Shown here in pieces: positions 2,679 to 37,875 of a stretch of 64,000 nt of DNA. Every line of letters begins with the position of its first letter. The first letter of the stretch is position 1. A program made the translations under genes and the position numbers. The DNA comes from an uncultured bacterium (GTDB lineage Bacteria > Patescibacteriota > Minisyncoccia > Phycocordibacterales > DATDWN01): contig CAVSGX010000005.1 of NCBI GenBank assembly GCA_963727715.1, forward strand, positions 50,672 to 114,671, read 5' to 3'. Below the pieces are notes generated by a model. It made no database searches, was not told where the DNA came from, and was given only the letters and a program-made list of their open reading frames with translations.

Positions 2679-3032
2679 ATGATTCTAGTCGCGCATATAC
2701 CTTATTTGGAGATGAGACATTTAAAGTGGTTTGCTAAATATCAGCAAGCGCCACTTTTTCTAATACCGGAAGACATAATCTCGGATTTTTTAGCATCTAA
2801 TCTGGACACTGACGCTCTACCGGTTGAAATAATGGAAAAGATTCTTTTGGGGTTGGATTGTCCTCCTTCGGTGAGAAGTGTTGAGATCCTCGATGTCGAA
2901 AAAATCCCTAAAGTCTCTGGCGATTCCGCTTCTAGTCAAACTTATATTTTCCCGGATGAACCTGTGTCTCGTTTTGTGGTGGAGAAATATTTCACTGGCA
3001 TAAAAGGAAGAGTTCTTTTTGAGAAAATCTGA
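2679..3032 (+). CDS. Hypothetical protein
   Basis: ORF only. Confidence 0.3.
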   Translation: MILVAHIPYLEMRHLKWFAKYQQAPLFLIPEDIISDFLASNLDTDALPVEIMEKILLGLDCPPSVRSVEILDVEKIPKVSGDSASSQTYIFPDEPVSRFVVEKYFTGIKGRVLFEKI

Positions 3033-3111: not shown

Positions 3112-4209
3112 ATGGTTCTTTCACAACAGTCTCTAAAGAAAATCATGTTGGGTGTCAACCCAATGATTATTTGTTCGGAAGATTTTTCAGACAAATGTAT
3201 TCAACCGGCAAGTGTAGACATACCGCTTTCAAATCGCTGTTTCCGAGTCTCGGTCAGTGCCCTGCCTAACAACGGACATACGATGACCGAACTCTTGAAC
3301 CGTTTTAAGATGTATGACTTCGAGCTTAAGCACGAAGGAGGTTTGCTCGAAAAGGGCATGACATATGTTTTGCCACTTTCAATGAATCTGTCTCTGGGCC
3401 AGCAATTTCGGGCATTGTTTTCGCCAAAAAGTACAACAGGTAGAAACGATGTCTTCGCCAGAGTCATCACAGAATCTGGCAAGACATTTGATCTGACCGA
3501 ATTTGGTTATCAAGGGAAGCTGTATCTGGAAGTGACACCACTGTCTTTTCACTGCACTGTCTACCCATTTGAGTCTTTGACTCAAATGAGATTGTCTACT
3601 GCTAGTGACAATCGTCTTTCCAGTGAGGAACTTGCTATTCTCCATTCGCAATATGGTATTGTCAGAAATCAAAATGGTGATGTGGTGGGGGCAACCATTG
3701 GGGGCGATTCTCTTTATTTGCATTTGGATTTGAGCAACGGAGCTCAAACCGCAGGTTATGAGTCTCTAAAAAATCCGGAAGGATGCGTCCATCTCGGGAG
3801 CAAAGAAGTTGATACTAAGGAAGAATTTTGGAGACGAATCAGACCGACCTCTCATGGCGATTTGATACTCTATCCGGATTCTTTCTATCTATTGTCGACT
3901 CGCGAAAGGATTGTCATACCACCGAACGTCTGCGCTACCATGCAGGAATACTCGGTCGGTATGGGAGAGTTTCGTAGTCACTATGCCGGATTCTTCGACA
4001 ATGGTTTTGGTGGTGAAAATGGCACCCAGGGTGTTCTGGAGTTTCGTTCTCGGGATTTGCCGGTCAGGTTTTGCGATGGCCAGCAGATTTGTCGTCTGGT
4101 TTTCTATAAAACTGATGAGATTCCGGAAAAGTTATATGGGAAAGGTTCACATTACACCGGTTCTGGCCCAAGATTGGCCAAGAACTTCATAAATTATTTG
4201 GAATGGTAA
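3112..4209 (+). CDS. Long-form dCTP deaminase-like protein (DCD / dUTPase superfamily)
   Basis: IQPASVDIPL motif typical of dCTP deaminase; length about 365 aa. Start chosen at the first in-frame Met after the upstream stop. Confidence 0.45.
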   Translation: MVLSQQSLKKIMLGVNPMIICSEDFSDKCIQPASVDIPLSNRCFRVSVSALPNNGHTMTELLNRFKMYDFELKHEGGLLEKGMTYVLPLSMNLSLGQQFRALFSPKSTTGRNDVFARVITESGKTFDLTEFGYQGKLYLEVTPLSFHCTVYPFESLTQMRLSTASDNRLSSEELAILHSQYGIVRNQNGDVVGATIGGDSLYLHLDLSNGAQTAGYESLKNPEGCVHLGSKEVDTKEEFWRRIRPTSHGDLILYPDSFYLLSTRERIVIPPNVCATMQEYSVGMGEFRSHYAGFFDNGFGGENGTQGVLEFRSRDLPVRFCDGQQICRLVFYKTDEIPEKLYGKGSHYTGSGPRLAKNFINYLEW

Positions 4210-4249
4210 AACAAAATCCAGTCGCCTGTGTGACTGGATGTTTTTTTGA

Positions 4250-5608
4250 CTAATTTTTCATGATGATGTCTTGGGTGCCACGACGTACATCAAAACGATT
4301 TGGCTCTGGGTCAAGATGGAGAATCAGACCATCTCTACCAAATCGCATTTTTAACACATCTGCCATTTGAAAAGCTCGTTCTCGCAGTGTCGGATGAACG
4401 AATCGAGTACCGCGGAGTTCCACTAAATAAACTAAAGCGTGTAAATCACCAGTCACACGGTTTGTGGTGTTGAATCCCATACCAGTGTAGTATTGTTTGA
4501 TATCTTTTGTTGTTGGCAAGTTGTCTATGAGGACGACTTGTTCATTAATAAAAGATTTCATTTCTCCACGTAAACCTTCTCCAAGTTCGGATAAGTACCA
4601 CGGATGGAATCCGTATTTGGTGGATAGCAGTGGCATTTGTTGAGTCACGGCTCTGTGTCTTTGAATGTCGCGGAAAGAGCCAAAATCCAAAAAGAATTCA
4701 AAAGTTACATTACCACACTCTTTTATCTTTTTCGGCAACTCTGTCTTTGCCGGCCTGCTTCCCATCGCATTTTTGTATTCACGGAGTAGCGCTAAGTTGA
4801 CGTTATCAAAAAAAAGAAAATCTTCCCTCAAATCTGAATCAAAATAGTATCCCCTCATCATTTCCTTGACGTATTCTTCTGTTGCAGGGTACCTTTTGCT
4901 GGAGAAAGAACTCGGGTACTTTTCAATCAAAGCACTTTCCACTGCTTTAGCCACTTCACGCACTTCTTCAAGTGGATGATGGCGGAGCCAGAGAAGCTCA
5001 TCGGCAAATTGACGCAAATTCATATGCCAAGTCAGGTCAGTTGTCGCACCGGCCGGCAAGAAACTGCGCATAATGTCAAAAGCTCTAGCATTGATTGCCT
5101 TTTGATATACTACTTCATCCTCGCCTTTATTTATCGGAAAGCGAGACTTAAGGCTGATTTGTAACCAATCAAGACCATGAAGATAGGCCGTCCTCCACCT
5201 TTCTTGAATCTTTTCACCATCAGCTGTGCCGAGAGGATTCAGGAAAGTTTGTCTGGAGAAATCAATAAACCGAGTTGATGATTCCTGGCCGTTATAAAGT
5301 GGCCAGTCTTGAACTGCTTTCGGTACAAACATAGACACGCCTTCAATAATGACCGTAGCATTACCACAGTCACCAATAGATTTGTGTCCGTAACCTATAT
5401 AGAACTTTTCCATGAATTTTTTTGCCCCGAATTCGATCAGGGTTTTCATATGTTCAAAGAATCCACCAACAGAACGAGACTTCATGGCTTGTACCATAGC
5501 CAACTCTTCCGGTCCCAAAACGGCGCCGGTGTCTACCACAATAACTTGCCCACCGTTTCTGAGCGGACGATGAATGTGTTTCAAAGAACTTATGGAAATT
5601 ATGTCCAT
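4250..5608 (-). CDS. ThyX (Thy1)-like flavin-dependent thymidylate synthase homolog with a non-canonical active-site motif and a roughly 190-aa C-terminal extension
   Basis: GYGHKSIGDCGNATVII resembles the ThyX GHETPFEH region. W.hN.R...F...LR...E.R resembles the ThyX C-terminal helix. An ESSTRF segment aligns to ThyX SGRY, but WPL replaces the RHR triad. Confidence 0.4.
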   Translation of the reverse strand: MDIISISSLKHIHRPLRNGGQVIVVDTGAVLGPEELAMVQAMKSRSVGGFFEHMKTLIEFGAKKFMEKFYIGYGHKSIGDCGNATVIIEGVSMFVPKAVQDWPLYNGQESSTRFIDFSRQTFLNPLGTADGEKIQERWRTAYLHGLDWLQISLKSRFPINKGEDEVVYQKAINARAFDIMRSFLPAGATTDLTWHMNLRQFADELLWLRHHPLEEVREVAKAVESALIEKYPSSFSSKRYPATEEYVKEMMRGYYFDSDLREDFLFFDNVNLALLREYKNAMGSRPAKTELPKKIKECGNVTFEFFLDFGSFRDIQRHRAVTQQMPLLSTKYGFHPWYLSELGEGLRGEMKSFINEQVVLIDNLPTTKDIKQYYTGMGFNTTNRVTGDLHALVYLVELRGTRFVHPTLRERAFQMADVLKMRFGRDGLILHLDPEPNRFDVRRGTQDIIMKN

Positions 5609-5697
5609 AGTTACCTCTACGATTAGGATACGTTTTATTTTTACAAAGTCAATTGACTTTTTTAGACAAAATCGCTATTCTGGCGAAGGAGGTTTTC

Positions 5698-6318
5698 ATG
5701 AGAGGTAAGTTCATTGTGATTGAGGGTGGGGATTGCTCCGGGAAAAGTACCTTTATGCGTTTTTTGATGGAGAAGCACCCGGCACCACAGTTTTGTTATA
5801 CAAACGAACCTGGTGGGAATCCATATGGGATGAAGATCCGGTATCTTCTTTTAAATGAGGAAGGTGCAGAGGAATCAGATAACTCAACTAAGTTCCATTT
5901 ATATTGGGCTTCGAAGGTTGAAAATTTTAGAAAAGTCATATTTCCACATCTTGATAAGGGGATAACGGTTGTGACTGACAGGTTTGAAGGTTCAACCTTT
6001 GCCTACCAAGTTTCTGAAGACCATAGGCTGGAAAATCTCTTCTGGCAAACACGTGAAGCTTGTTTGCGTCGCGTCGTTCCCTTCTACATCCATTTTGATG
6101 TTGATGTTGAAACTCAGATAGCTCGGGCGAAAGCAAGGATCGGCGAGCAGAATTACTTTGATGCCAGGGGCATCGAATATCGCCAGAAAATTTGTCGGGC
6201 TTATCGAAGGTTTTTCGATGACAAGAGAATTAAGTCTCGCCGGGTTGATTCCAGTCTTCCCAAAGACGAGATGCTATCATCGGCCTACGATGTGTTTAAA
6301 GAAATAGTCGGTTTATAA
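5698..6318 (+). CDS. Thymidylate/dNMP kinase family P-loop kinase
   Basis: FIVIEGGDCSGKST Walker A motif with tmk-like spacing. An AGGAGG Shine-Dalgarno sequence lies upstream of the ATG at 5698. Confidence 0.55.
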   Translation: MRGKFIVIEGGDCSGKSTFMRFLMEKHPAPQFCYTNEPGGNPYGMKIRYLLLNEEGAEESDNSTKFHLYWASKVENFRKVIFPHLDKGITVVTDRFEGSTFAYQVSEDHRLENLFWQTREACLRRVVPFYIHFDVDVETQIARAKARIGEQNYFDARGIEYRQKICRAYRRFFDDKRIKSRRVDSSLPKDEMLSSAYDVFKEIVGL

Positions 6319-6390: not shown

Positions 6391-8133
6391 ATGTTTTCCG
6401 AGAAAATCAAAAAATGGGTAATGGAAACTCTTGACGCGAATGAAGCTGATTTTGTCGTGGAATATCCGGCAGAAATGGCTTTTGGTGACTATTCAACAAA
6501 TGTGGCCATGGTCTTGGCTAAAACTGAAAAGAAAAATCCAAAAGAACTGGCTGAAAAATTCGCGACAAAATTAAATGATAAAAAAATTCCCGAAGTGGGA
6601 GCAATAACCGTGGCAGGACCTGGGTTTATAAACTTCTTTCTAAAGCCAGAAGTTTTTGCCAGCGTGGTGGAGGAAGCAATCAAAAATGGCTCAAATGTTG
6701 GTCATAATAAAAATCTGAAAGGCCAAAAAATTTTGGTGGAGTACACCGACCCGAACCCGTTCAAGGAATTTCATATTGGGCATCTTATGAGCAACGCCAT
6801 TGGCGAATCAATTTCGCGAATAATTTCTGCCGAAGGCGCGGAGGTCAAGCGAGCCTGTTATCAGGGCGATGTTGGTCTTCATGTGGCCAAAGCGGTTTGG
6901 GCCATGAAAAATTCAACACCTGATTTAAAATCGCAAGAATATTTTCCCAGAGAATCTGATCCCATAAATAAGAAAATTGAATTTTTAGGTCAGGCATATA
7001 CCACCGGCGCGTTGGCTTATGAAAATCAACCTGAATCAAAGGAAAATATAAATGAAATAAACAAAAAAATTTATGACCAAACTGATTCCGAAATAAATGA
7101 TTTATATAAAAAGGGCAGGAAATGGAGTCTTGATTATTTTGAAACAATGTATTTTCTGTTAGGGATGAAGAAACAAAACGATGGAAAAGCTTTCAATTTT
7201 TATTTTTTTGAATCCGAAACTGGAAAATTTGGAAAAGAAATCGTAGAAAAAAATGTCGGCAAAATTTTTGAGAAAAGTGATGGCGCCATTATTTTTCACG
7301 GAGAAAAATATGATGAAAGTTTGCATACAAGAGTTTTTATAAACAAAGATGGTCTACCGACATATGAAGCCAAAGAACTCGGGCTTTCAAAAATAAAATA
7401 TGGTAAATATTCTTATGATCTATCAATTATCATAACCGGTAATGAAATAAACGACTATTTCAAAGTTTTACTGAAAGCCATGTCTCTCATTTTTCCTGAT
7501 TTGGCTGTGAAAACCAAACATATTTCTCACGGAATGCTTCGGTTGCCTTCCGGGAAAATGTCCTCGCGAACAGGTGATGTCATTACAACCTTGTCGCTTA
7601 TTGATGAAATAAAAAATCTGATTTTGCAGAAAATGTCGGAGCGAAAAATGTCAGCCGAGCAAAAAGAAAAAGTGGCTGAAGAGGTGGCCACCGGCGCGCT
7701 GAAGTTTTCCATTTTGAAACAATCAGCTGGCAAGGATATTATTTTTGATTTTGAAAAATCAGTTTCTTTTGAAGGTGACTCCGGACCGTACTTGCAGTAC
7801 GCGACAGTGCGTGCCAATTCCATTTTGAAAAAATCCGGAAAAATTTCGCCAAACACTAAAATGCCGGCTGATTGGCAGACGACGAATTTGGAAAAAATGT
7901 TTGAAAGATTTGAAAGTGTCGTCGCTCGGGCCGGCGCGGAATACGCTCCGCATTATATTGTCACATATCTGGTGGAGCTTGCTTCCGAATTCAACTCTTT
8001 TTACGCCAAACACAAAATAATAGACAAAACCGACCCGACTTCGCCTTACAAACTGGCGCTAACTCAAAGTTTCGCAAATATAATGACTTCTGGCCTTGAC
8101 CTGCTCGGCATTGCCGTGCCAGAGGAGATGTAG
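6391..8133 (+). CDS. argS: Arginine--tRNA ligase
   Basis: HIGH motif (HIGHLMS), KMSSRTGD (KMSKS-like), and a C-terminal DALR-type domain. Confidence 0.9.
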   Translation: MFSEKIKKWVMETLDANEADFVVEYPAEMAFGDYSTNVAMVLAKTEKKNPKELAEKFATKLNDKKIPEVGAITVAGPGFINFFLKPEVFASVVEEAIKNGSNVGHNKNLKGQKILVEYTDPNPFKEFHIGHLMSNAIGESISRIISAEGAEVKRACYQGDVGLHVAKAVWAMKNSTPDLKSQEYFPRESDPINKKIEFLGQAYTTGALAYENQPESKENINEINKKIYDQTDSEINDLYKKGRKWSLDYFETMYFLLGMKKQNDGKAFNFYFFESETGKFGKEIVEKNVGKIFEKSDGAIIFHGEKYDESLHTRVFINKDGLPTYEAKELGLSKIKYGKYSYDLSIIITGNEINDYFKVLLKAMSLIFPDLAVKTKHISHGMLRLPSGKMSSRTGDVITTLSLIDEIKNLILQKMSERKMSAEQKEKVAEEVATGALKFSILKQSAGKDIIFDFEKSVSFEGDSGPYLQYATVRANSILKKSGKISPNTKMPADWQTTNLEKMFERFESVVARAGAEYAPHYIVTYLVELASEFNSFYAKHKIIDKTDPTSPYKLALTQSFANIMTSGLDLLGIAVPEEM

Positions 8134-8174: not shown

Positions 8175-11100
8175 ATGAAAGAAGAAGAAAAAAATGTAAA
8201 AAGCGAAATTGCCGAAAAGACTAAACCGAGCCTAAGCTCGGTTGCCCGATCCAACGAAGTTGAATTTAGGGAAGAGCAAATCCTCAAATTTTGGCAGGAC
8301 AATAAAATTTTTGAAAAATCTCTGGCCAAGCCCGCGCCAGAAGGTGATTTTGTTTTTTACGACGGTCCACCTTTTGCCACCGGCTTGCCACATTATGGGC
8401 ATTTGCTTGGTTCCACGGTCAAAGATTTGTTTCCGCGATACAAAACCATGCGGGGGTTTAAAGTGCGCCGTCGCTGGGGCTGGGATTGTCACGGCTTGCC
8501 TGTGGAAAATATTGTGGAGAAAAAACTCGGCCTGAAACACAAAAAAGACATTGAAGCTATAGGTATTGAAAAATTCAACGAAGAATGCCGAGCCCAAGTT
8601 TTGACTTATGTTCACGATTGGAAAAAATATATTGACCGGCTCGGTCGCTGGGTTGATTTTGATAATTCCTACAAGACTATGGACACAAGCTACACCGAAT
8701 CGGTTTGGTGGGCCCTGTCGCAGATTGATAAAAAAGAAATGCTTTACGAAGGGCGAAAAGTTTTGCTCTACTGTCCGCGCTGCGAGACGCCTTTGTCCAA
8801 AGCCGAGATCGCCATGGACAATTCATACAAAAATGTGACCGAGGAAGCGGTCACCCTGAAATTCAAATTGAAACCTGAACAGAAGTTTGGCAAATATCAA
8901 ACAAAAGACACAGATTATATTTTAGCTTGGACCACAACACCGTGGACACTGCCGGCCAATGTGGCTTTGGCTGTGGGGGAGGATATTTCCTACACGGCTT
9001 TGAGAATAAAAAATAAGACCGAGCTTTACATTTTAGCCAGTAATCTTGTCCAAAAAGTTTTTGCTGGCAAAGAAATTGAAATTGCCCACGATAATATTTC
9101 CGGCAAAGATTTGCTTGGTCTAGAGTACGAACCGCTTTACGATTTGCCGGCCGTTCGAGCCACAGGCAAGAGGGCTTGGTACATCGCCCCAGCCGATTTT
9201 GTGACGACGGAAGATGGCACTGGCGTGGTGCATACAGCAGTCATTTATGGCGAGGAAGATTATCAACTCGGCGTAAAGATTGGTCTGCCGATGTTGCCAC
9301 TTCTTTTACCAAACGGCAATTACAATAACGACGCGCCAGAATTTCTTCGCGGTATTTACATTAAAACAGCTGAAAATTTAATCAAAAAAGATTTAGAAGA
9401 TCGCGGACTTTTGTTTGCCAAAGCACCAAACACTCACTCCTATCCGCATTGTTATCGTTGTGGCACGCCACTCATTTACAACGCTCTTTCCAGTTGGTTC
9501 ATTGACATACAGAAAATCAAAAAAGAAATGCTAGCCAAAAATAAAAACATCAACTGGGTGCCGGAACATTTGAAACATGGTCGGTTTCAGGACATTATGG
9601 AGAGCGCGCCGGACTGGAACATCAGTCGCAACCGATTTTGGGCTTCGCCTTTGCCGATTTGGAAATGTCAGTCTTGCCAGAAAATAAAAATTGTCGGTTC
9701 AATTCAAGAATTGAAAGAGTCAACCCAAAAATCAGGCAACAAATATTTTTTAATGCGACATGGCCAGTCGCAGTCAAACGCCAATGGGCGAATCATTAGT
9801 TGCAAAAAAGAAAACAAAGATCCGCTGACCGAAAAAGGCCGAGAGGAGGTTTTAGAAACAACCAAAAAATTGACCAAAGAGAAAATAGATTTGATAATAG
9901 CTTCGCCTTTTATGCGCACAAAAGAAACAGCCCAAATCATAGCTGACAAAATAGGCATCAATCAAGATAAAATAATTTGCGACGACAGACTGGGTGAAAT
10001 TTTCTGCGGTGACCACGACGGAGAGCCGTGGACGGAACTCAATCTCGGCAAAGAAACTCCCGGTCCGGAAACCATGCAAGATGTTCATATCAGAGTGATG
10101 GAATTTTTGTACGAAACCGATGCCAAATATTCCGATCAAAATATTTTGATAATCTCCCACGGCGCTCCGCTTGATCTGCTCCATCTAGGAGCGCAAGGTT
10201 TGTCTATTAAAGATATTGTCGAACGCTATCCGGACAATCTATTTCACAATGCCGAGCTTCGGACTTGCGATTTCACACCTTTGCCACACAACAAAAATTT
10301 TGAAATTGATTTGCACCGGCCATACATAGATGAAATCAAATTTGATTGTCCTTGTGGCGCGACAATGAAAAGAATTCCGGAAGTCATTGACTGTTGGGTT
10401 GAATCCGGCTCGATGCCTTTCGCCGAGTACAATTATCCTTTCGCCGACAAAAAAGAATTTGAAAAAAGAACACCAGGAGATTTTGTGGCCGAATACATCG
10501 CCCAAACGCGCACCTGGTTTTATTACATGCACGCCATCTCCGTTGCCCTTTTTGGCCACGAGCCATTCAAAAATGTTATAACTACCGGCACTATTTTGGC
10601 CGGCGACGGCGACAAAATGACCAAATCAAAAGGCAATTTTGCCGACCCACTTGTTTTGATGAATCTCTATGGGGCTGATGCCTTGAGGTACTATTTGATG
10701 ACATCTGTTTTGATGCAGGCCGAGGATGTCAATTTTCAAGATGACGGGGTCAAAGAAGTTTATCAGAGAATGCTCAATATTTTGCGCAACGTCTTGTCAT
10801 TTTACAAAATGTACAAAACCGATTTTGCAGAAACAAAAGAATCAAAAAATGTTTTGGACAGATGGATTTTGTCTCGGCTGAAAGAATTGCATACCGAGGT
10901 GACGGAAAATCTGGAAAAATACGATACCATTCGCGCCGGCCGGCCAATAAGGAATTTTGTTGATGATCTTTCCACTTGGTATTTACGTCGCTCGCGTGAC
11001 AGGTTCAAATCGGAAAGTATTGAAGAAAGAAAATCAGTTTCCCAAACAATGCATTTTGTTTTAATTGAGCTGTCAAAAATTATGGCGCCGTTCACGCCGT

Positions 11101-11690
11101 TTCTGGCTGAGGAAATCTTTCAAGATTTGCGTTTTTCATCGGATGCCGAAAGTGTTCATTTGGAAAATTGGTCTGATATGTCAAAAATAAAATCCGATGC
11201 CGAACTGATTGAAAAAATGATTTATGTCAGAAGTGTCGTGACTTCGGCTCTGGAATTGCGCCAGAAAGCCGGCATCAAAGTTCGCCAGCCACTCTCGAGT
11301 TTAAAAATCAAAAATCAAAAATCAAAATTGGAAGATGAATTTGTCGATTTAATAAAAGATGAAATTAATGTAAAAGAAATAATTTTTGATAAAAATTTGG
11401 CGATGGATTTGGAATTGGACACGGATTTGACCAAAGAATTGAAAGAAGAAGGACTCTCTCGCGAAATTATTCGGGCTATTCAGGATGTCCGCAAAAAAGA
11501 AAAGCTTAATCCAAACAAACTTGTCTCGCTCCGTATTTCCACTGACGACTTTTTGAAAAATATTTTAGAATCAAGCAAAAAAACCATTCTTTCGGCGGTT
11601 TTGGCAAAAGAAATTTCTTATTCTGCTGAAAATCAGATTCATAATGTTGACATTGAAAATCATCAGCTTTCCGTTTCTGTCATACTTTGA
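8175..11690 (+). CDS. ileS: Isoleucine--tRNA ligase with an inserted histidine-phosphatase (PGAM-like) domain
   Basis: PHYGHLLG (HIGH), WGWDCHGLPVE, KMTKS, and a CPCG zinc knuckle. An insert of about 180 aa (nt 9735-10275) carries RHGQS, SPFMRTKETA and SHGAPL motifs. Confidence 0.9.
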   Translation: MKEEEKNVKSEIAEKTKPSLSSVARSNEVEFREEQILKFWQDNKIFEKSLAKPAPEGDFVFYDGPPFATGLPHYGHLLGSTVKDLFPRYKTMRGFKVRRRWGWDCHGLPVENIVEKKLGLKHKKDIEAIGIEKFNEECRAQVLTYVHDWKKYIDRLGRWVDFDNSYKTMDTSYTESVWWALSQIDKKEMLYEGRKVLLYCPRCETPLSKAEIAMDNSYKNVTEEAVTLKFKLKPEQKFGKYQTKDTDYILAWTTTPWTLPANVALAVGEDISYTALRIKNKTELYILASNLVQKVFAGKEIEIAHDNISGKDLLGLEYEPLYDLPAVRATGKRAWYIAPADFVTTEDGTGVVHTAVIYGEEDYQLGVKIGLPMLPLLLPNGNYNNDAPEFLRGIYIKTAENLIKKDLEDRGLLFAKAPNTHSYPHCYRCGTPLIYNALSSWFIDIQKIKKEMLAKNKNINWVPEHLKHGRFQDIMESAPDWNISRNRFWASPLPIWKCQSCQKIKIVGSIQELKESTQKSGNKYFLMRHGQSQSNANGRIISCKKENKDPLTEKGREEVLETTKKLTKEKIDLIIASPFMRTKETAQIIADKIGINQDKIICDDRLGEIFCGDHDGEPWTELNLGKETPGPETMQDVHIRVMEFLYETDAKYSDQNILIISHGAPLDLLHLGAQGLSIKDIVERYPDNLFHNAELRTCDFTPLPHNKNFEIDLHRPYIDEIKFDCPCGATMKRIPEVIDCWVESGSMPFAEYNYPFADKKEFEKRTPGDFVAEYIAQTRTWFYYMHAISVALFGHEPFKNVITTGTILAGDGDKMTKSKGNFADPLVLMNLYGADALRYYLMTSVLMQAEDVNFQDDGVKEVYQRMLNILRNVLSFYKMYKTDFAETKESKNVLDRWILSRLKELHTEVTENLEKYDTIRAGRPIRNFVDDLSTWYLRRSRDRFKSESIEERKSVSQTMHFVLIELSKIMAPFTPFLAEEIFQDLRFSSDAESVHLENWSDMSKIKSDAELIEKMIYVRSVVTSALELRQKAGIKVRQPLSSLKIKNQKSKLEDEFVDLIKDEINVKEIIFDKNLAMDLELDTDLTKELKEEGLSREIIRAIQDVRKKEKLNPNKLVSLRISTDDFLKNILESSKKTILSAVLAKEISYSAENQIHNVDIENHQLSVSVIL

Positions 11691-27411: not shown

Positions 27412-28188
27412 ATGGGCTATAACAAATTTATCAAATCGGGTAATAATGTTGAGACTTACGAATATGAAAAAGACATTGTTATTCTGCGTGGTGGTAAAAA
27501 ATATCATTTTGATGATGAGGAGAAAAAAGAGATAGACAAAAATGCTGATTTGGACGAGGTGGAAGTCGGTAAGAGAATTGATAATGTCCGCAAAGCTAGT
27601 TTGGAATTTAGACGGCTTGTTTCTTCAAATTTAGATGATAAAAATTTTCCTCTTTTGCTGACTGTTACATACAAAGAAAATCAAACTGATTTGAAAAAAG
27701 TGTATTATGACCATAAACTATTTGTTCAAACTTTGAAATATACTTATGGAAAAAATCTGAAATATATCTGCGTGCCGGAATTTCAAAAAAGAGGAGCTGT
27801 TCATTTTCACGGTTTGTTTTGGGGACTGCCGGCTGGTATTCTTTTGCCGGAGCGTTTGCACGGATATTACGAAAATGCCTCTCCGACACTTTCTAAAATT
27901 TGGGACTTGGGTTTTGTTTTTCTCAAACCGACTGACGGGGACGATAAACTGTCCTCGTATCTTGCCAAGTATATGGCAAAGGCTTTTACCGACCCAAGAC
28001 TCAAACATCAAAAAGCCTACGCTTCGTCTCGCAATGTTAAACGGCCGTATGTGGTTTCCGGTATTACAAATATTTCTTTTTTGATTGATGATTATGTTGG
28101 TCTTGACGCTGTGCCGGTCAAGGAAAATAAATATCACACGACATATATGGGAGAGGCTCGGTATCGCATGTATAAAATTCCAAGTTGA
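27412..28188 (+). CDS. Rolling-circle replication initiator (HUH endonuclease, phiX174 gpA / P2 gpA-like two-tyrosine type)
   Basis: Motif I LLLTVTY, motif II VHFHGLFW (HUH), motif III YLAKYMAK (YxxKY). Confidence 0.7.
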   Translation: MGYNKFIKSGNNVETYEYEKDIVILRGGKKYHFDDEEKKEIDKNADLDEVEVGKRIDNVRKASLEFRRLVSSNLDDKNFPLLLTVTYKENQTDLKKVYYDHKLFVQTLKYTYGKNLKYICVPEFQKRGAVHFHGLFWGLPAGILLPERLHGYYENASPTLSKIWDLGFVFLKPTDGDDKLSSYLAKYMAKAFTDPRLKHQKAYASSRNVKRPYVVSGITNISFLIDDYVGLDAVPVKENKYHTTYMGEARYRMYKIPS

Positions 28189-28219
28189 ATTATTAAAATT
28201 TAAGAGTAATATCACAAAT

Positions 28220-29911
28220 ATGAAATTCATCGCCTATTATAGAAAATCAACCGAGAGCGAGGATAGACAACTTCTTTCTCTTGACGCGCAGGAAAGGGAA
28301 GCTCTGCAACTTTCGGAAAAATACAACCTCAATGTCGTCAAAACTTTCAAGGAAAGCATGTCGGCAAAGTCTGCCGGTCGTCCGCTTTTCAACGAAATGA
28401 TTAAAATGATTCAAGCCGGAAAAGCTGACGGAATTGTTTGTTGGAAATTAGATAGACTGGCTCGCAACTTCATTGACGGCGGTTTGGTTATTGATATGTT
28501 GCAACACGGTATCATTCAAGAAATCCAAACCTCCGAGGGTGTTTTTCGTCCGGGTGATGATGTTACTCTGCTGGCTTTGAAATTTGGTGTGGCAAATCAA
28601 TATAGCCGAAATTTGAGTGTTGATGTGAAGCGTGGCAACAGAGAAAAACTGGCTCATGGCGGTTGGCCGGGTCCAGCAAAGTTTGGCTACAAAAATGACA
28701 AAGCAGAAAAAACAATTGTCGTTGACCCTATCAAATCAAAATATGTCATTCGTATGTTTGAATTGTATTCCACTGGCAGTTACGGCTTCAAAGAAATTTC
28801 TCAAATTTTATTTGACGAGGGTTTGCGAACAGGCACGGGCAAAAAGTTTTTCTCCGGCAATATTCACCGACTCATGGACGAGCCATTTTACTACGGTATG
28901 ATGTTGCGAGACGGCAAACTTCACCCCGGCAATCATACACCTATTATTTCAAAAGAACTCTACGACAAAGTCCAAAATGTTTTGCACAACCGCCACCGAC
29001 CACGACCAAAAAATCATTTCTTTCCACTTCGCGGATTTATGACTTGTGAAAAGTGTGGTTGCGCTTTGACCGCTTCATTCAAAAAAGGCCACGCTTACTA
29101 TTACTGCACCAACGGAAAAGGTATTTGCTCTGAACACAAAACATATCTGCGAGAAAATACGCTATATCCCATTGTCGCAGGACTTTTTGACAAGCTAAAC
29201 ATTGACGAGGAAGCTATTGAAATGATGTATCAGTCTGCAAAAGAGGATATCGGGCTAGACGCTGAATACTCCGAGTCCATTCTGACAACCCTCAAAAGCC
29301 GTCTAAATGCTCTCACAGTCAAAGAAAGCAAACTGCTTGACGCTTTCCTTGCAGAAAGCATTACCAAAGATATTTACGACGGCAAAGCTCTTGAAATCCA
29401 AAACGAAAAAACCATACTCTCCAAACAAATATCCGATACAGAGAAAAAATCTGAAAATCTGGTTTCTACTTTGGAACCAGTCAAAAACATTTTTCTACGA
29501 GCCAGTAGAGCCAAAAAAGAATTTCTAGCCGGTGATGACCAGAAAAAGAGAGAAGTGGTAGAAACCATACTTTGGAACCTTTCCATTGAAAAGCAAAAAA
29601 TGGCTAATTACAAACTCAAAAGTCCATATTCCATACTCTCAAAACTACCTAAAAACCCTGATTTTCAGACCTTGCGGAGACGGTGGGATTCGAACCCACG
29701 AGAAGGTTACCCCTCTAACACCTTAGCAAGGTGCCGCTTTCGGCCACTCAGCCACGTCTCCAAAAAAATAAAAAAACTTACAATCACCTTACCATATCAG
29801 TGCGCAATCGTAAACGCGAAAATGTCGCGAGCGCCGGCGGAAAGCAGGGTGGCCCGAGCTTCGGAAAGGGTGGCGCCGGTGGTGGCCACATCGTCAATCA
29901 GAATGGCATAG
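28220..29911 (+). CDS. Large serine recombinase (resolvase/invertase N-terminal domain, recombinase domain and zinc ribbon)
   Basis: YYRKSTESEDRQLLSLDAQ catalytic-serine motif; recombinase domain; CEKCGC...YYYCTN zinc ribbon. The in-frame stop lies beyond the tRNA, so the true C-terminus is uncertain. Confidence 0.8.
   Translation: MKFIAYYRKSTESEDRQLLSLDAQEREALQLSEKYNLNVVKTFKESMSAKSAGRPLFNEMIKMIQAGKADGIVCWKLDRLARNFIDGGLVIDMLQHGIIQEIQTSEGVFRPGDDVTLLALKFGVANQYSRNLSVDVKRGNREKLAHGGWPGPAKFGYKNDKAEKTIVVDPIKSKYVIRMFELYSTGSYGFKEISQILFDEGLRTGTGKKFFSGNIHRLMDEPFYYGMMLRDGKLHPGNHTPIISKELYDKVQNVLHNRHRPRPKNHFFPLRGFMTCEKCGCALTASFKKGHAYYYCTNGKGICSEHKTYLRENTLYPIVAGLFDKLNIDEEAIEMMYQSAKEDIGLDAEYSESILTTLKSRLNALTVKESKLLDAFLAESITKDIYDGKALEIQNEKTILSKQISDTEKKSENLVSTLEPVKNIFLRASRAKKEFLAGDDQKKREVVETILWNLSIEKQKMANYKLKSPYSILSKLPKNPDFQTLRRRWDSNPREGYPSNTLARCRFRPLSHVSKKIKKLTITLPYQCAIVNAKMSRAPAESRVARASERVAPVVATSSIRMA
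29675..29761 (-). tRNA. tRNA-Ser (anticodon GCT), long variable arm
   Basis: Acceptor ggagacg/cgtctcc, anticodon loop ttGCTaa, T-loop ggttcgaatcc, 17-nt variable arm. Confidence 0.85.
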
Positions 29912-30487: not shown

Positions 30488-31603
30488 ATGGCAGATTTTT
30501 TATCGTCAATCACCAATATTTTCTCAAAACCAAGCCCGTCCGTTCTCGGTGTGGATATCGGTTCCTCTTCTATCAAAGTGGTCCAGTTGCATCGCAAGGG
30601 TGGGCGAGCCATTTTGGAGACTTACGGAGAATTGTCTCTCGGTCCGTATGCTGGTGTCGGTGTTGGCCAAGCCACCAATTTGCCGGTTGATAAAATAGTC
30701 GAGGCCATGAACGATCTTTTGAACGAGAAAGAAGTGGCCATTACCAGCAAACTCTGTGGTGTGGCCATTCCCTTTGCTTCCAGCTTTATGACCGTCATCA
30801 ATATGCCTCCGGTTTCAAGCAAACAGCTGGCCCAAATTATTCCCATTGAAGCCAGAAAATACGTTCCGGCGCCGATATCTGAAGTGATGCTTGACTGGTC
30901 AATCATCCCGAAAGATATTGATACCAGACCCGATTCTTCTGGCAAAAAAGAACCGGATAAAATGGAAATTCTTCTTGTAGCCATTCACAACGGCACCCTA
31001 GATAAATATAAAGAAATTGTGAGCAGAAGCAACCTAGACAGCAGTTTTTTTGAAATTGAAATATTTTCCACCATGCGTTCCATTTTGGATCAGGAAATCT
31101 CGCCGGTTATGATTTTGGATATGGGCGCTATGAGCACCAAACTTTATATAGTTGAAAGGGGTATATTGCGTTCGTCTCACACCATCAACAAAGGTTCTCA
31201 AGAAGTGACAAATGTTTTGTCCAAAACTTTAGGCCTTCCTCTGCAAGATGCCGAGGTGTTGAAAAGAGAAAAAGGTCTCGGGTCCGTTGCTTCCGAAATC
31301 GGTGTGTCAGATATTATGTCCGTGACATTTGATTATATTTTTTCCGAAGCCAACCAAGTCGTTTTGGCTTATCAAAAGAGATATAACAAAAATGTCAGCA
31401 AGGTTTTTCTAGTCGGCGGTGGTAGCGCTCTTATTGGCTTGGAAGAAATTGCCAAAAAGAATTTTCAAACCGATGTTGAGAGTGGCAACCCGTTCTCCAA
31501 AGTGGTCGTGCCGGCTTTCTTAGAGGAAGTTTTGCGCAAAACCGGTCCGGAATTCACCGTGGCTGTCGGCTTGGCTCTGCGGAGGTTGCAGGAATTGGAT
31601 TAA
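30488..31603 (+). CDS. pilM: Type IV pilus assembly protein PilM (actin-like ATPase)
   Basis: LGVDIGSSSIKVVQL start; 371 aa. Confidence 0.8.
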   Translation: MADFLSSITNIFSKPSPSVLGVDIGSSSIKVVQLHRKGGRAILETYGELSLGPYAGVGVGQATNLPVDKIVEAMNDLLNEKEVAITSKLCGVAIPFASSFMTVINMPPVSSKQLAQIIPIEARKYVPAPISEVMLDWSIIPKDIDTRPDSSGKKEPDKMEILLVAIHNGTLDKYKEIVSRSNLDSSFFEIEIFSTMRSILDQEISPVMILDMGAMSTKLYIVERGILRSSHTINKGSQEVTNVLSKTLGLPLQDAEVLKREKGLGSVASEIGVSDIMSVTFDYIFSEANQVVLAYQKRYNKNVSKVFLVGGGSALIGLEEIAKKNFQTDVESGNPFSKVVVPAFLEEVLRKTGPEFTVAVGLALRRLQELD

Positions 31604-31635
31604 AAGGTTAACCATTTTGTTAAAATTATGATATA

Positions 31636-31923
31636 ATGCGAGGTATGAACACACTGCCTGAATTTTTCAAATCGATACTTTGGTCATATTCTTTTTATGA
31701 TTGCGATCCAAATAAAATGAAGAAGACCATCATTTCTCAAAGTCTAAATTATGGCTCTATAAAGCACTGGAAATGGATAAAATCTTTTTACGGAGATAAA
31801 GAAATCCTTGCTGTCCTATCCTCTATCCCGGAGACAGAAATACATTCAAAAACTAAAAAGCTGGTTGAGATTGGTTTTAATTTTAACAATTGGAACTATG
31901 CATCTAGAAGTTCTGACAGATAA
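31636..31923 (+). CDS. Hypothetical small protein, possibly the partner of the downstream AbiEii-like gene
   Basis: ORF overlaps the next gene in another frame; no recognisable domain. Confidence 0.2.
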   Translation: MRGMNTLPEFFKSILWSYSFYDCDPNKMKKTIISQSLNYGSIKHWKWIKSFYGDKEILAVLSSIPETEIHSKTKKLVEIGFNFNNWNYASRSSDR

Positions 31924-32533
31924 CACCAAAAAAGTTTTTGATAAAATTTCAAAATTTCAAAATTTGAAAGATGCTTTTTATCTTGCCGGTGGAACAGCTC
32001 TTGCGTTGCAATTAGGTCATCGCATCTCCGTTGACTTGGATTTTTTTTCAGATGAGCATATCAAAAAAACTTTTCTGTCAGACATTGAAGATTTTTTTGG
32101 ACAAACCGCGCAGGTCATAGCAAAAAGTCAAAATGAATTAACGATTATTATAAACGAAGTAAAAATCACTTTTCTGCATTATCCGTTCGCGCTTATTTAT
32201 CCATTAGAAAATAAAAATGAAATCATTCTGGCCGACTTAAAAGAAATAGCTTTAATGAAAGCCTATGCTATCGGTCGGCGACAGTCGCTGAAAGATTATA
32301 TTGATTTATACACCATTGTTTCCAGAAATTTAATGACCCTGGGTTCCATTGTGGAAAATTCAAAAAATAAATACGGAGAAGTTTTCAATGACCGTGTCTT
32401 TTTGGAGCAGTTGGTTTATATAAAAGACATTGACGACGAACCAATACAATGGATTGACAAATCTGTGTCAAAAGAAGAAATCAGAAGTTTTTTTGAAGCA
32501 GAAGTGAAAGTATATTTTAACACGCTGAAATAA
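31898..32533 (+). CDS. Nucleotidyltransferase AbiEii/AbiGii toxin-family protein
   Basis: FYLAGGTALALQLGHRISVDLDFF matches the AbiEii GGTAL...R.S.D.DF signature. Confidence 0.5.
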   Translation: MHLEVLTDNTKKVFDKISKFQNLKDAFYLAGGTALALQLGHRISVDLDFFSDEHIKKTFLSDIEDFFGQTAQVIAKSQNELTIIINEVKITFLHYPFALIYPLENKNEIILADLKEIALMKAYAIGRRQSLKDYIDLYTIVSRNLMTLGSIVENSKNKYGEVFNDRVFLEQLVYIKDIDDEPIQWIDKSVSKEEIRSFFEAEVKVYFNTLK

Positions 32534-33034
32534 AAACATGAAAGAATCATTACCTAAAAATTATCCAAATCTAAGCGAGCTCTCAGAAGAGAGAAAAAAT
32601 CTCCGCCAAATAAGTGGCGGAGTTCAGTTGAAATCCGTTAAAAGAGCGGTTGAATCCGCCCAAAAAGGAAATAAAGAAAAAGCAAAAGGTTTGGGAAACA
32701 TTGGAAGTCAAACAGATATCAGGTTAAAAATTCGGCGAAGTGGGAATCACTCTTGTCTGCGACAGATCGGGCAGTATGGAAGAAGGTGATAAACTTGCCG
32801 AACAAAGAAAGTCGGCGGTATTTTTGATGGAAGCTTTGAAAAAATTTGCTGAAAGATGCGACGAGGAAACGGTCAATATGGAAAAACCTTTGGCGGAACA
32901 AGCCGAAAAACTTTCCATCATTTTGGCCGATCTGCTTAAAGAACATCTGCAAAACATTTAAAACTTTTCAAAAAACTCTTTTGTTGATAACTTTTGTAGT
33001 CTTTTAATTTAACGCATAGTATAATTAGTTTGTT

Positions 33035-33634
33035 ATGGAGCCCCAATTTCAAACATCGTTCATCCCCAAAAAACCGATTGATTCCAGAGCTAGTGCCATA
33101 GGTGTCGGGGGAGGGCCGATCAGTCTTCTCTCCATTTTTACTTGGGTTTTGGTTACCCTGACCATTATAGTTTCAGTGGCTTTGTTTGTTTATCAACAGA
33201 TTTTGAATAGTCAGATGAGCCAGATTGAATCAAGCATTGCTTCGGCCAAAGAGGCCTTTCAGCCAACCACCGTCAAACAACTGGTTGATACCAGCAATCA
33301 AATATCTTTGACCGAAAAACTTTTAAACTCACACGTTTTAGTCAGTCGAGTATTTGATTTGTTGCAAAACCTGACCTTGAAAAAAATCTCCTATACCAAT
33401 TTTTCCTATAGCATTGATCAAAGTGGCAATTATTCAATCACCATGTCAGGTCAGTCCCAGAGTTATAATGCTTTGGTTCAGCAATACAATATTTTTGAAC
33501 AAAGCGGTTTAATACAAAATCCGGCGTTTTCCGATTTTTCTTTGACACAGGATGGTTACATTTCATTTGATTTTTCAGCAAACATTGACCCGTCCGTTAT
33601 TTCATATCAAAAATCCATTCAACCAACGCAATAA
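33035..33634 (+). CDS. pilN: PilN-like pilus assembly protein
   Basis: Single N-terminal TM helix, coiled-coil, position after pilM. Confidence 0.5.
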   Translation: MEPQFQTSFIPKKPIDSRASAIGVGGGPISLLSIFTWVLVTLTIIVSVALFVYQQILNSQMSQIESSIASAKEAFQPTTVKQLVDTSNQISLTEKLLNSHVLVSRVFDLLQNLTLKKISYTNFSYSIDQSGNYSITMSGQSQSYNALVQQYNIFEQSGLIQNPAFSDFSLTQDGYISFDFSANIDPSVISYQKSIQPTQ

Positions 33635-33643
33635 TATTAAAAC

Positions 33644-34192
33644 ATGAAATTATTTACAACACTCTTTTTAATAGTTATCTGTGTGTTGACCTATTTTGTC
33701 TACATAGGACCGACTTATTCCGCCGTTGGAGCCTTATCAGCTCAAAAAGATAATTATAGCCAGATTTTACAGGATTCTAAAAACATAGCCTCCAAACAGG
33801 ATCAGATTTTAGCTACATATGATTCAATTTCCACCAATGACCTTGATCGTTTGAATAAAATTGTTCCGCTTAATTTTAATTCTGTAACATTTATAAATTA
33901 TCTAAATATTATAGCCAGCAAATATGGGTTAGTTGTCAATGGGATGAAAGTTGTCGATCAGGGTCAAACTGCCGGAGAAATTGTTGATCAGTCTCAAAAA
34001 TCATACCAGACGAGAAACATAACCTTCTCGGTCAGTGGGCAGTATGCGACACTCATAAATTTTTTGAAGAGTTTGGAATCCGGACTGTATTTAGTCGATG
34101 TGACCGGATTATCTGTCACGAAAGGCTCAACAATCAAGAGTGGTTTGATGCTTAATTTTAATATCAGTCTAAACACCTACTCAATCAACTAA
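33644..34192 (+). CDS. pilO: PilO-like pilus assembly protein
   Basis: N-terminal TM helix plus a periplasmic domain; synteny. Confidence 0.45.
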   Translation: MKLFTTLFLIVICVLTYFVYIGPTYSAVGALSAQKDNYSQILQDSKNIASKQDQILATYDSISTNDLDRLNKIVPLNFNSVTFINYLNIIASKYGLVVNGMKVVDQGQTAGEIVDQSQKSYQTRNITFSVSGQYATLINFLKSLESGLYLVDVTGLSVTKGSTIKSGLMLNFNISLNTYSIN

Positions 34193-34207
34193 AATTTATT
34201 TTAAAAT

Positions 34208-34564
34208 ATGAAATTATCGCAAACACAAAAATTAATAATTGCCGTAATCATATTTGCTTTAGCTGGTTTTATTCTTTATAAGTCCTTTTCTGGTTCTAAC
34301 CCGGGAACAGTCGTAATTCCCGAGGCAATGGCTACAAGCACGGAAGTTCAAGAGGTCGTTGATCTGACAAATCAAATCAACGGTGTTTCAATTGATTTGG
34401 GGTTATTTTCCTCGCCTCTGTTCGTAAATCTGGTTGACTTTAATGTCCTACCATCGCCAGAACCTCAAGGACGGCCGGATCCTTTTGCCGATATTGGTAA
34501 TGACAGCGGAAACAGCATTATATCGGCTACCAGCACTGTGCTTGTTAAACAATCGTCGAAGTAG
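34208..34564 (+). CDS. Small membrane-anchored pilus-cluster protein (PilP-like?)
   Basis: TM helix; synteny only. Confidence 0.3.
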   Translation: MKLSQTQKLIIAVIIFALAGFILYKSFSGSNPGTVVIPEAMATSTEVQEVVDLTNQINGVSIDLGLFSSPLFVNLVDFNVLPSPEPQGRPDPFADIGNDSGNSIISATSTVLVKQSSK

Positions 34565-34627
34565 AAAACAAGGGATTATAATTTTTGTATACGACCATAA
34601 TCCTATTTTATAACTTTATAACCTCAA

Positions 34628-36343
34628 ATGGACATTTTAAACATTGCTATAAAAAACGGTCTTGTTAAAAAAGATCAGGTTGAAAATATCAAAAATAAAA
34701 TCAACCGCTCTGGTAAAAAACCGGAACAGGTTCTTTTGGAAGAAGGAGTTTCTCCGGAAGATATTTTGAAGCTAAAGGCAGAATACTTTAATATCCCGAC
34801 AAGGAGTGTCAATTTGGAAAGCATAACAGATTCCATTTTGGGTTATATTCCGCAGGAATCAGCCGAACATTATCATTTTGTGCCGATAGGAGACAGCGAA
34901 GGTGTCTTGGAAATTGGCGTAACCAACCCTGATAACATAAGTGCCATTGATGCTTTGAATTTCATATCGACTGAAATCGGTATGCCTTTCAAAATTTTTC
35001 TCATATCGGAAGAAGATTTTACCAAAGTCTTTTCTCTTTATAAAGGTTTGACAGGCGAAGTTTCAAAGGCTTTGAATGAATTGGAAGTTGAATTAAAAAC
35101 AAAAAGTCAAAAAGAACCGGAAAAAGTGGCAGGCAATATTGTCGGAAGCAGCGCCAAAATCAGCGAGGATGCACCTGTGACTAAAATTGTGGCCACCATT
35201 TTGCGTTATGCTTCAGACGGCAACGCCTCTGATATCCATATTGAGCCATGGAGAGAAAATATTAAAGTAAGGTTTAGGGTGGATGGGGTGATGAACACCA
35301 GTTTGATTTTGCCTTCAAAAGTTCACTCGGCTGTTGTTGCGCGCATTAAAATTCTTTCCAACATGAGACTTGATGAAAAACGAAAACCTTTGGACGGAAG
35401 GTTTAGCGCGCGCATTGAAAATCGCCGGATTGATTTTCGGGTCTCCACTTTTCCGACATATTTTGGCGAGAAAATAGAAATGCGACTTTTGGATCAGGAA
35501 AAAGGCGTTAAAAAATTAGACGAACTCGGCTTCTCAGACAAAAATTTGACAATCATCAAGAAAGCCATCGATAAGCCTTATGGTCTTATTCTTTTGTCTG
35601 GCCCGACCGGCTCTGGGAAAACATCCACTCTGTATTCAATGTTGAATGAAATGGACCGCGAACATTTGAATATTTTGTCTCTGGAAGATCCGATTGAATA
35701 CAACATTGAGGGTATATCACAATCGCAAGTTCAGCCGGAAATTGATTACACTTTTGCTTCAGGTTTGCGCACCACCTTGCGTCAAGATCCGGACGTTATC
35801 ATGGTCGGCGAGATTCGCGACAAGGAGACCGCACAACTAGCCATTCAAGCCGCTTTGACCGGTCACCTTGTTCTTTCAACCATACACACCAATTCAGCCG
35901 TCGGGGTCATTCCAAGACTGATTGATATGGGAGTTGACCCATATCTTATCGCTCCGACCCTGATCTTGGCCATTGCCCAACGTCTGGTTCGCGAACTTTG
36001 TCCGAGCTCAGGCAAGCCGGTGCCAGTTGAGGACAGTCTGAAAATAATGTTAGACAAGCAGTTCAGTGATTTGCCGGAGAAATACCTGAAAGAGTTAGAC
36101 TTTACGGATACTGTTTATTCAATATCGCCAAGTTCTGATTGTCCGGCTGGAGTAAGAGGGCGACTGGCTGTGTTGGAAGTTTTTGAGATGGACAAGGATA
36201 TAGAGGAAGTTATTCTGAAAAGCCCTACAGAAACGGCTTTGACCAAAATCGTAAGAGGTAAAGGAATGCTGACCATGAAAGAGGACGCCATTCTCAAAGC
36301 CATGCATCGCCTCATCCCGTTTGAGGAGATTAACACGTTATAA
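34628..36343 (+). CDS. pilB: Type IV pilus assembly ATPase PilB (GspE family)
   Basis: N-terminal GspII domain, Walker A GPTGSGKT, Asp/His boxes. Confidence 0.9.
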   Translation: MDILNIAIKNGLVKKDQVENIKNKINRSGKKPEQVLLEEGVSPEDILKLKAEYFNIPTRSVNLESITDSILGYIPQESAEHYHFVPIGDSEGVLEIGVTNPDNISAIDALNFISTEIGMPFKIFLISEEDFTKVFSLYKGLTGEVSKALNELEVELKTKSQKEPEKVAGNIVGSSAKISEDAPVTKIVATILRYASDGNASDIHIEPWRENIKVRFRVDGVMNTSLILPSKVHSAVVARIKILSNMRLDEKRKPLDGRFSARIENRRIDFRVSTFPTYFGEKIEMRLLDQEKGVKKLDELGFSDKNLTIIKKAIDKPYGLILLSGPTGSGKTSTLYSMLNEMDREHLNILSLEDPIEYNIEGISQSQVQPEIDYTFASGLRTTLRQDPDVIMVGEIRDKETAQLAIQAALTGHLVLSTIHTNSAVGVIPRLIDMGVDPYLIAPTLILAIAQRLVRELCPSSGKPVPVEDSLKIMLDKQFSDLPEKYLKELDFTDTVYSISPSSDCPAGVRGRLAVLEVFEMDKDIEEVILKSPTETALTKIVRGKGMLTMKEDAILKAMHRLIPFEEINTL

Positions 36344-36391
36344 ACTTATTAAGTTGAAGATATGGGAAAATTAAAGTAAAATACAACTAAT

Positions 36392-36784: not shown

Positions 36785-36788
36785 AATT

Positions 36789-37853: not shown

Positions 37854-37875
37854 TCTGTCGAAAATCGGCTTAATT

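Follow-up and report, generated by a model that had tools for sequence, protein, structure and literature searches.

The window analysed here is a stretch of 64,000 nucleotides of contig CAVSGX010000005.1 (assembly GCA_963727715.1), from an uncultured bacterium of the Patescibacteriota, and the locus of interest is set in the housekeeping chromosome of a small-genome bacterium. Three genes of nucleotide metabolism lie together there: dcd, which encodes a long-form dCTP deaminase of 365 amino acids (aa; 3112-4209 (+)); a minus-strand gene encoding a protein of 452 aa (4250-5608 (-), a span that takes in the stop codon); and tmk, which encodes a dTMP kinase (5653-6318 (+), with a likely start at 5698). 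The original prediction, made by a model from the letters alone, had located these three genes correctly, and all the motifs it quoted from the 452-aa protein are present. This protein is likely to be an FAD-dependent thymidylate synthase (ThyX) of unusual construction, in which two ThyX domains are fused in one chain and the active-site residues are divided between them.

The N-terminal domain, the 'catalytic-loop' half (residues 1-232, 4913-5608 (-)), is identified by both Pfam and hhalign. The Pfam Thy1 profile (PF02511), with which a match had been anticipated, is indeed matched with an E-value of 3.4e-17 (63.3 bits against a cutoff of 24.8), over residues 57-232 only. Residues H75, E109, S111, R113, F114, R181, N197, R199, R209, and H211 are present in this domain, and their counterparts in Thermotoga maritima ThyX are, in the same order, H53, E86, S88, R90, Y91, R147, N163, R165, R174, and H178; the residue matched by H75, His53, is the one that stacks on the flavin and the folate. 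The exception is the R78-H79-R80 triad (RHR motif), on which D101-W102-P103 is aligned by hhalign against a T. maritima-type ThyX profile, the codons at 5267-5308 (-) translating to DWPLYNGQESSTRF. The earlier statement that RHR is replaced by WPL was, thus, right about the loss of the triad from this domain, and one residue off in its position. Conservation was counted in 177 unique family members. The first two RHR positions are held by D in 173 and by W in 174 of them, and the third residue is variable. E109, S111, R113, R181, and R199 are found in all 177, the Y/F at position 114 is kept, and H75 (175), H211 (176), R209 (171), and N197 (169) are nearly invariant.

The C-terminal domain, the 'RHR-donor' half (residues 255-452, 4253-4846 (-)), carries R313, R317-H318-R319, R399, and H405, the counterparts of R74, R78-H79-R80, R174, and, roughly, H178. 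Its RHR triad is encoded by the codons at 4652-4660 (-) and lies within LDFGSFRDIQRHRAV (FRDIQRHRAV). R313, R317, R319, R399, and H405 are kept in 177 of 177 members, and H318 in 170, with Q in the other seven. The 452-aa protein had been described as lacking the RHR motif, with an intact triad in a different register named as the finding that would speak against this; such a triad proved, unexpectedly, to be present in the C-terminal half. This domain has, in turn, no counterparts of H53, E86, S88, R90, R147, and R165: an invariant P292 stands at the H53 position, M325-P326-L327-L328 at E86-x-S88-x, and an invariant Q372 at R147. The ThyX motif is, therefore, contiguous in neither domain (DWP...ESSTRF in the N-terminal one, RHR...MPLLS in the C-terminal one), and because the former is without RHR and the latter without the Ser-x-Arg-Tyr loop, it is complete only when both are combined. 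The same complementary pattern, RHR included, is kept in 97 divergent full-length representatives (50%-identity clusters, 427-657 aa). Read over the 177 members and these 97 representatives, in a register that partly comes from low-confidence alignment, every T. maritima residue in contact with dUMP or FAD (H53, R78, H79, R80, E86, S88, R90, Y91, R147, R165, and R174) appears to be matched, in one of the two domains, by a residue that is invariant or nearly so. The chain ends with a family-specific tail, RFDxxRGxxDI (residues 431-452, 4250-4315 (-)), in which R438, F439, D440, R443, G444, D447, and I448 are invariant. The conservation of this tail is on a par with that of the catalytic core, and no counterpart of it was identified in canonical ThyX.

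Structural comparison gives the clearest view of the C-terminal half. When residues 255-452 were modelled alone and submitted to Foldseek, the top 50 matches were all ThyX. The full-length AlphaFold2 model (32-sequence alignment) has a predicted local distance difference test score (pLDDT) of 89.2 and a predicted template-modelling score (pTM) of 0.88, which suggests a defined packing of the N- and C-terminal parts, and the order of strands and helices occurs in it twice, once per half. As modelled, both halves thus have the three-dimensional fold of ThyX. The C-terminal region of about 190 aa had been taken to have no ThyX counterpart; an unrelated C-terminal extension was rejected as an explanation, since the C-terminal half alone matches only ThyX structures. 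The premise of the original prediction was half right, because the RHR triad sits in a diverged second ThyX domain that had been mistaken for such an extension.

Sequence comparison is less generous. A search of the Protein Data Bank (PDB) with the protein itself returned no ThyX and only a spurious repeat-protein match, and a profile of the family found ThyX chains weakly (E 0.007-0.19), via the N-terminal half only. Several further results weigh against the tandem-domain interpretation. The NCBIfam thyX equivalog (TIGR02170) is matched at 24.3 bits, below its cutoff of 87.9, over residues 176-236 only. In Foldseek, the isolated C-half model gives TM-scores of ~0.4 with a large root-mean-square deviation. 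On residues 233-452, the Pfam Thy1 match (E 0.29, 11.3 bits) stays below the cutoff, in the right register (profile positions 55-186); hhalign of the C-terminal half against a canonical ThyX profile gives an E-value of 0.22; and comparison of the N-half and C-half profiles yields a match of only 10 residues, KSIGDCGNAT (K76-T85) against KKIKECGNVT (K293-T302), with an E-value of 0.032. The C-half profile retrieves nothing relevant from the PDB. The homology of this half to ThyX rests, therefore, on the fold, the sequence tests being weak. The register of the C-terminal domain was based on hhalign, Pfam positions, and the K76-T85/K293-T302 match, and beyond the RHR and ELR blocks it comes from low-confidence alignments. 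In the proposed assembly, R317/R319 would lie close to S111/R113, and the N-C pair within a chain would mimic one of the canonical interfaces. The search for a second thymidylate synthase covered the 64-kb window and 84 neighbourhoods rather than whole genomes, and no assayed enzyme of tandem-ThyX architecture was found in the literature searched.

The tandem form is widespread. A homology search with the 452-aa protein yielded 2,764 proteins at E <= 0.001. Among the 120 matches listed, lengths range from 416 to 501 aa, at least 92% of the query is covered, the assemblies are independent, and the named proteins are from Patescibacteria and labelled 'FAD-dependent thymidylate synthase'. A genome scan found the ~450-aa tandem protein in at least 533 species-level genomes, and where a record gives an organism name, it is nearly always one of the Patescibacteria. 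Several records of metagenome-assembled genomes (MAGs) with a Patescibacteria-type tandem thyX bear titles that name Gammaproteobacteria, Burkholderiales, Bdellovibrionales, or delta proteobacterium; mislabelled or contaminated bins probably account for them, rather than real occurrences outside the Candidate Phyla Radiation (CPR). Searched against 1.84 billion proteins, the C-half profile alone gave 1,112 matches at E <= 1e-3, 190 of them at E <= 1e-30; it is from this search that the 97 divergent representatives were drawn. Columns conserved at 97% or more number 35 of 167 in the C-terminal domain and 62 of 176 in the N-terminal one; the former is, thus, conserved almost like the latter, which argues that it is not a decaying relic. 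As for stand-alone C-domain genes, the one short match examined is a contig-end fragment, and not a split gene.

The pathway context is consistent with thymidylate synthesis. In 84 loci, for which genes within +-6 kb were counted, the tandem thyX is accompanied by Tmk (42/84), dUTPase-like proteins (33/84), dCMP deaminase (29/84), serine hydroxymethyltransferase (SHMT, 29/84), and long-form dCTP deaminase (DCD, 15/84). In a Nomurabacteria genome, for example, the order is dCMP deaminase, NUDIX, deoxynucleoside kinase-like, thyX, dihydrofolate reductase (DHFR), dUTPase, thymidine kinase, and Tmk, and in another relative SHMT, dCMP deaminase, a kinase, thyX, Tmk, and MazG follow just downstream of NusG-L11-L1. 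Ribosomal protein L11 is near the tandem thyX in 47 of the 84 loci, which constitutes conserved synteny. Neither thyA nor a canonical thyX was found within +-6 kb of the tandem gene in any of the 84. Likewise, tblastn of the 64-kb window with T. maritima ThyX (a query 100% identical to P0121, for which nothing appeared at E<10) and with provisional query sequences for Escherichia coli ThyA and E. coli Dut revealed no further thyA, thyX, or dut. The dCTP deaminase route needs a dUTP to dUMP step, though the same search with the provisional Dut sequence found no dUTPase in the window. Given these neighbours and the lack of another thyA, thyX, or dut, the trio is best read as the route from dCTP to dUTP (DCD), dUMP, dTMP (tandem ThyX), and dTDP (Tmk). 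It would, thus, be an ordinary dTTP-synthesis cluster, with no sign of a DNA-modification role, and the tandem ThyX is predicted from its gene neighbourhood to convert dUMP to dTMP with FAD, NAD(P)H, and methylenetetrahydrofolate (CH2-THF).

Canonical ThyX is a 222-symmetric homotetramer in which each active site is built from three subunits, and the RHR region and the Ser88 loop of one site lie on different chains. For the PBCV-1 enzyme, monomer A contributes Gln75 and Arg182, a strictly conserved residue, and monomer B contributes Ser88 and Gln89; the hydrogen bonds to dUMP are made by R78, R80, S88, and R90 (PMC3498832). R78 also stabilises FADH-, and H53 is contributed by 'monomer-3' (PMC11940539). 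We infer that PBCV-1 Arg182 is the equivalent of T. maritima R174. Since the RHR block and the R174 equivalent are kept in the C-terminal domain of the tandem protein, this domain holds the 'monomer A' residues; the N-terminal domain, where the Ser/Arg/Tyr loop, R147, and H53 are kept, holds those of 'monomer B' and 'monomer 3'. Because canonical sites span different chains, a dimer of tandem chains mimicking the tetramer is the most likely arrangement. With four domains between them, two tandem chains would recreate a pseudo-tetramer of the 222 type, where a complete site would consist of an N-domain loop, a C-domain RHR triad, and the His from the N-terminal domain of the other chain. If two chains so assemble, the symmetry of a canonical-like assembly would leave exactly two complete sites, and the other two would be dead, being without S88, R90, R78, and R80. 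The argument from selection would hold independently of this assembly model: two complementary sets of residues, each apparently useless alone, are both invariant family-wide.

Other explanations of the same protein have to be weighed. It could be supposed that only the N-terminal domain is catalytic, without an RHR triad, and that the C-terminal domain is a pseudo-enzyme module, serving structure or regulation, which adds nothing to the active site. Pfam does recognise the N-terminal half only, and most of the active-site residues are gone from the other half (H53, E86, S88, R90, R147, and R165). Nevertheless, the canonical residues left in the C-terminal domain are exactly those that the N-terminal domain lacks, with R313, R317, and R319 kept throughout (177/177), and the pattern holds across clusters below 50% identity. 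An N-only site would, in addition, be deprived of R78 and R80, which bind dUMP and stabilise the reduced flavin in canonical ThyX, so this explanation is judged unlikely. Still less probable is that the 452-aa open reading frame (ORF) is a ThyX-fold enzyme that methylates or modifies another substrate (UMP, as in PolB, dCMP, or a hypermodification precursor), the trio then making a modified pyrimidine. The protein is indeed far from assayed ThyX, judging from the 24.3 bits of TIGR02170 and the empty tblastn search with T. maritima ThyX, the family has its conserved RFDxxRGxxDI tail, and the kinase faintly matches a 5-hydroxymethyldeoxyuridine (5-hmdU) DNA kinase (HMUDK_HMUD1, PF18748; E 0.02). 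However, this last match is confined to the P-loop region and, at 14.8 bits, is far below its cutoff of 27, while the same kinase exceeds the dTMP-kinase equivalog cutoff. The counterparts of the dUMP-contact residues R78, R80, S88, R90, R147, and R174 are, moreover, invariant over both domains taken together; the neighbours provide dUMP (DCD, dCMP deaminase, and dUTPase) and CH2-THF (SHMT and DHFR) and use dTMP (Tmk); and neither the window nor the 84 neighbourhoods contain another thymidylate synthase. No transferase or glycosylase of hypermodification type is adjacent, and the gene sits on a housekeeping chromosome, in at least 533 species.

A phage-type thymidine hypermodification system was rejected, given the sub-cutoff HMUDK match and the neighbours NusG, L11, arginyl-tRNA synthetase (ArgRS), and isoleucyl-tRNA synthetase (IleRS). 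The original prediction had offered two options, such a phage-like system and a divergent thymidylate synthase. The former is not supported, in view of the housekeeping setting, the spread over at least 533 species, the dTMP-pathway neighbours, and the HMUDK score, and the latter agrees with the ThyX fold found twice, the conserved dUMP/FAD-contact residues, and the dTMP-pathway neighbourhood. Overall, the observation of the original prediction is partly confirmed, and its interpretation partly supported. The notion that the 452-aa ORF is an artefact of annotation or assembly, e.g., a frameshift that merged two adjacent thyX genes, or a chimeric contig, can practically be dismissed. The 2,764 homologues, the uniform length and coverage of the 120 listed, and the occurrence in at least 533 species genomes all speak against it, as does the identity of the one short match examined, a contig-end fragment. 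A pseudogene was likewise rejected.

The fusion of two ThyX domains can be set beside several known systems. Canonical ThyX (PF02511), e.g., T. maritima TM0449 (1O26/5CHP), and the enzymes of Mycobacterium tuberculosis (2AF6), PBCV-1 (2CFA/4FZB), and Helicobacter pylori (3AH5), has the fold common to both tandem halves. Counterparts of its dUMP/FAD-contact residues all appear to be present, the pathway context is the same, and the same chemistry of dUMP methylation (FAD, NADPH, and CH2-THF) would be expected. It has, however, a single domain of ~220-250 aa, whereas the tandem protein has two in ~450 aa, with the motif split between an RHR triad in the C-terminal domain and a Ser-x-Arg-Tyr loop in the N-terminal one. 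For the tandem protein, two complete sites are predicted per four-domain assembly, against four in the canonical enzyme, and it falls below the TIGR02170 cutoff, its second domain going undetected by Pfam. In 2004, Leduc et al. reportedly worked with engineered mutants of the ThyX homotetramer; the idea in common is that, ThyX sites being composite, a hetero-oligomer could combine subunits with defects at different residues so that one makes up for the other. The tandem protein resembles this situation as if nature had fixed it, but the asymmetry is here built genetically into a single polypeptide, and it is kept throughout much of a phylum-level radiation.

PolB, the UMP/dUMP methylase of polyoxin biosynthesis (PDB 4P5A), is a ThyX paralogue with an altered substrate range, which accepts UMP; it is single-domain and belongs to a secondary-metabolite cluster, whereas the tandem ThyX has a dTMP-pathway context, the comparison covering architecture and context. 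The Thermus thermophilus Thy1 'having an extra C-terminal domain' (PDB 6J61), which is among the Foldseek matches of the C-terminal half, also bears extra C-terminal sequence, but with 239-242 residues it has a small added domain, and not a second ThyX domain. Chlamydial ThyX (CT632), of ~529 aa, is possibly another long ThyX, its link to the tandem form being a lead only; it is said to have been characterised biochemically by Griffin et al. in 2005 (cited in PMC8316439). No Chlamydia-named relative was found among the matches listed or in a search with a divergent 502-aa member, and neither the latter search nor the cluster names gave a named relative from outside the Patescibacteria. The literature searched yielded no account of a fused or tandem ThyX, which is not proof of novelty, and a 2018 review of ThyX by the field's founders describes homotetramers only. 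The function would be ordinary, and it is the tandem architecture that appears to be undescribed.

The two flanking genes are conventional. The dCTP deaminase, as the original prediction had it, contains IQPASVDIPL and is matched by Pfam DCD_N (E 8.6e-42), DCD_C (E 2.3e-44), and DCD; it passes the equivalog threshold of NCBIfam PRK07559 (294.7 bits against a cutoff of 283) and matches PDB 2r9q (370 aa) with an E-value of 1.7e-59 over residues 24-359. Although the mechanical ORF begins at TTG 3019, ATG 3112, the start taken in the original prediction, agrees with the starts of homologues. This enzyme would supply dUTP, and ultimately dUMP, to the pathway. Long-form DCD (PF06559 + PF22569; PDB 2R9Q) offers a parallel to the tandem ThyX, being an internally duplicated oligomeric (trimeric dUTPase-like) fold with one half more diverged; the fold and reaction are, however, unrelated, and this form is already in Pfam and NCBIfam, with a solved structure. 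The kinase, predicted to be of the thymidylate/dNMP type, is a dTMP kinase according to TIGR00041 (102.5 bits against a cutoff of 83.25) and Pfam Thymidylate_kin (PF02223, E 3.4e-24); it contains the P-loop GGDCSGKST (GxxxxGKS/T pattern) and matches 32 thymidylate-kinase sequences of the PDB (best E 1.3e-14). Its mechanical ORF begins at TTG 5653, and the alternative start, ATG 5698, reads MRGKFIVIEGGDCSGKST..., is preceded by AAGGAGG, and is probably the true one.

Between the convergent stop codons of dcd and thyX, a hairpin with T-runs on both strands (4216-4239) looks like a bidirectional terminator; a pattern scan, in which only the consensus was matched, gives it a 10-pair stem on the plus strand and an 8-pair stem on the minus strand, each followed by a T-rich tail. 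The divergent spacer of 89 bp between thyX (-) and tmk (+) (5609-5697) contains a Shine-Dalgarno-like sequence for each gene: AAGGAGG, 7 nt ahead of ATG 5698, and, on the minus strand, GAGGT upstream of the thyX ATG. Sigma-70-like matches in this spacer are weak, occur on both strands, and do not exceed the expectation from shuffled sequence. Upstream of the trio are NusG (1485-2030) and ribosomal protein L11 (2134-2556), and downstream ArgRS (6391-8133) and IleRS (8175-11690 (+)). In relatives, L1 comes next after L11; it was not seen at the matching position here, where the interval from L11 to dcd holds a 117-aa ORF (2679-3032 (+)) that neither Pfam nor NCBIfam matches.

Other features of the window were noted in passing. 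The IleRS (1171 aa) has a histidine-phosphatase (phosphoglycerate-mutase-like) domain inside its class-I catalytic domain, at residues 525-683 (Pfam His_Phos_1, E 6.3e-27), with an RHG motif in YFLMRHGQSQSN and the tRNA-synt_1 match split around the insert; such an insertion is unusual for an aminoacyl-tRNA synthetase. A large serine recombinase (Resolvase + Recombinase + Zn_ribbon_recom, 28085-29911 (+)), which may mark an integrated element, lies just ahead of a type IV pilus gene cluster (30488-39084) comprising PilM, two T2SSE ATPases, and T2SSF. Further on, a 1250-aa protein (48316-52068 (+)) combines right-handed beta-helix/NosD repeats with an LCAT-like lipase region (lecithin:cholesterol acyltransferase family), and is probably a large surface or secreted protein.

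More tentatively, it is possible that thymidylate is supplied, in much of the Patescibacteria (CPR), by an undescribed, single-chain 'pseudo-heterodimeric' ThyX, which would have arisen through duplication, fusion, and complementary loss. The four-site homotetramer would, in that case, have become a dimer of tandems in which two of the sites are composite and the other two are vestigial pockets, and the second domain would have diverged past detection by profile hidden Markov models. Such pockets, like the invariant RFDxxRGxxDI tail, may now serve a new function, e.g., NADPH or folate docking, or regulation.

The interest of this protein lies in structure and evolution, as a three-subunit composite ThyX site has seemingly been fixed in one polypeptide by nature, and an assembly is predicted to have half as many sites as usual. 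The protein would illustrate cleanly how duplication, fusion, and complementary degeneration can shape an essential enzyme, of which standard annotation sees only half (one Pfam Thy1 domain, with the NCBIfam thyX equivalog failing). ThyX is both a drug target and a mechanistic model, and a hard-wired asymmetric form would help in assigning the roles of residues to individual subunits. The finding is of moderate interest for the mechanism of ThyX, the evolution of pseudo-symmetric enzymes, and CPR metabolism, and metabolic reconstructions of these bacteria should count the tandem gene as their thymidylate synthase.

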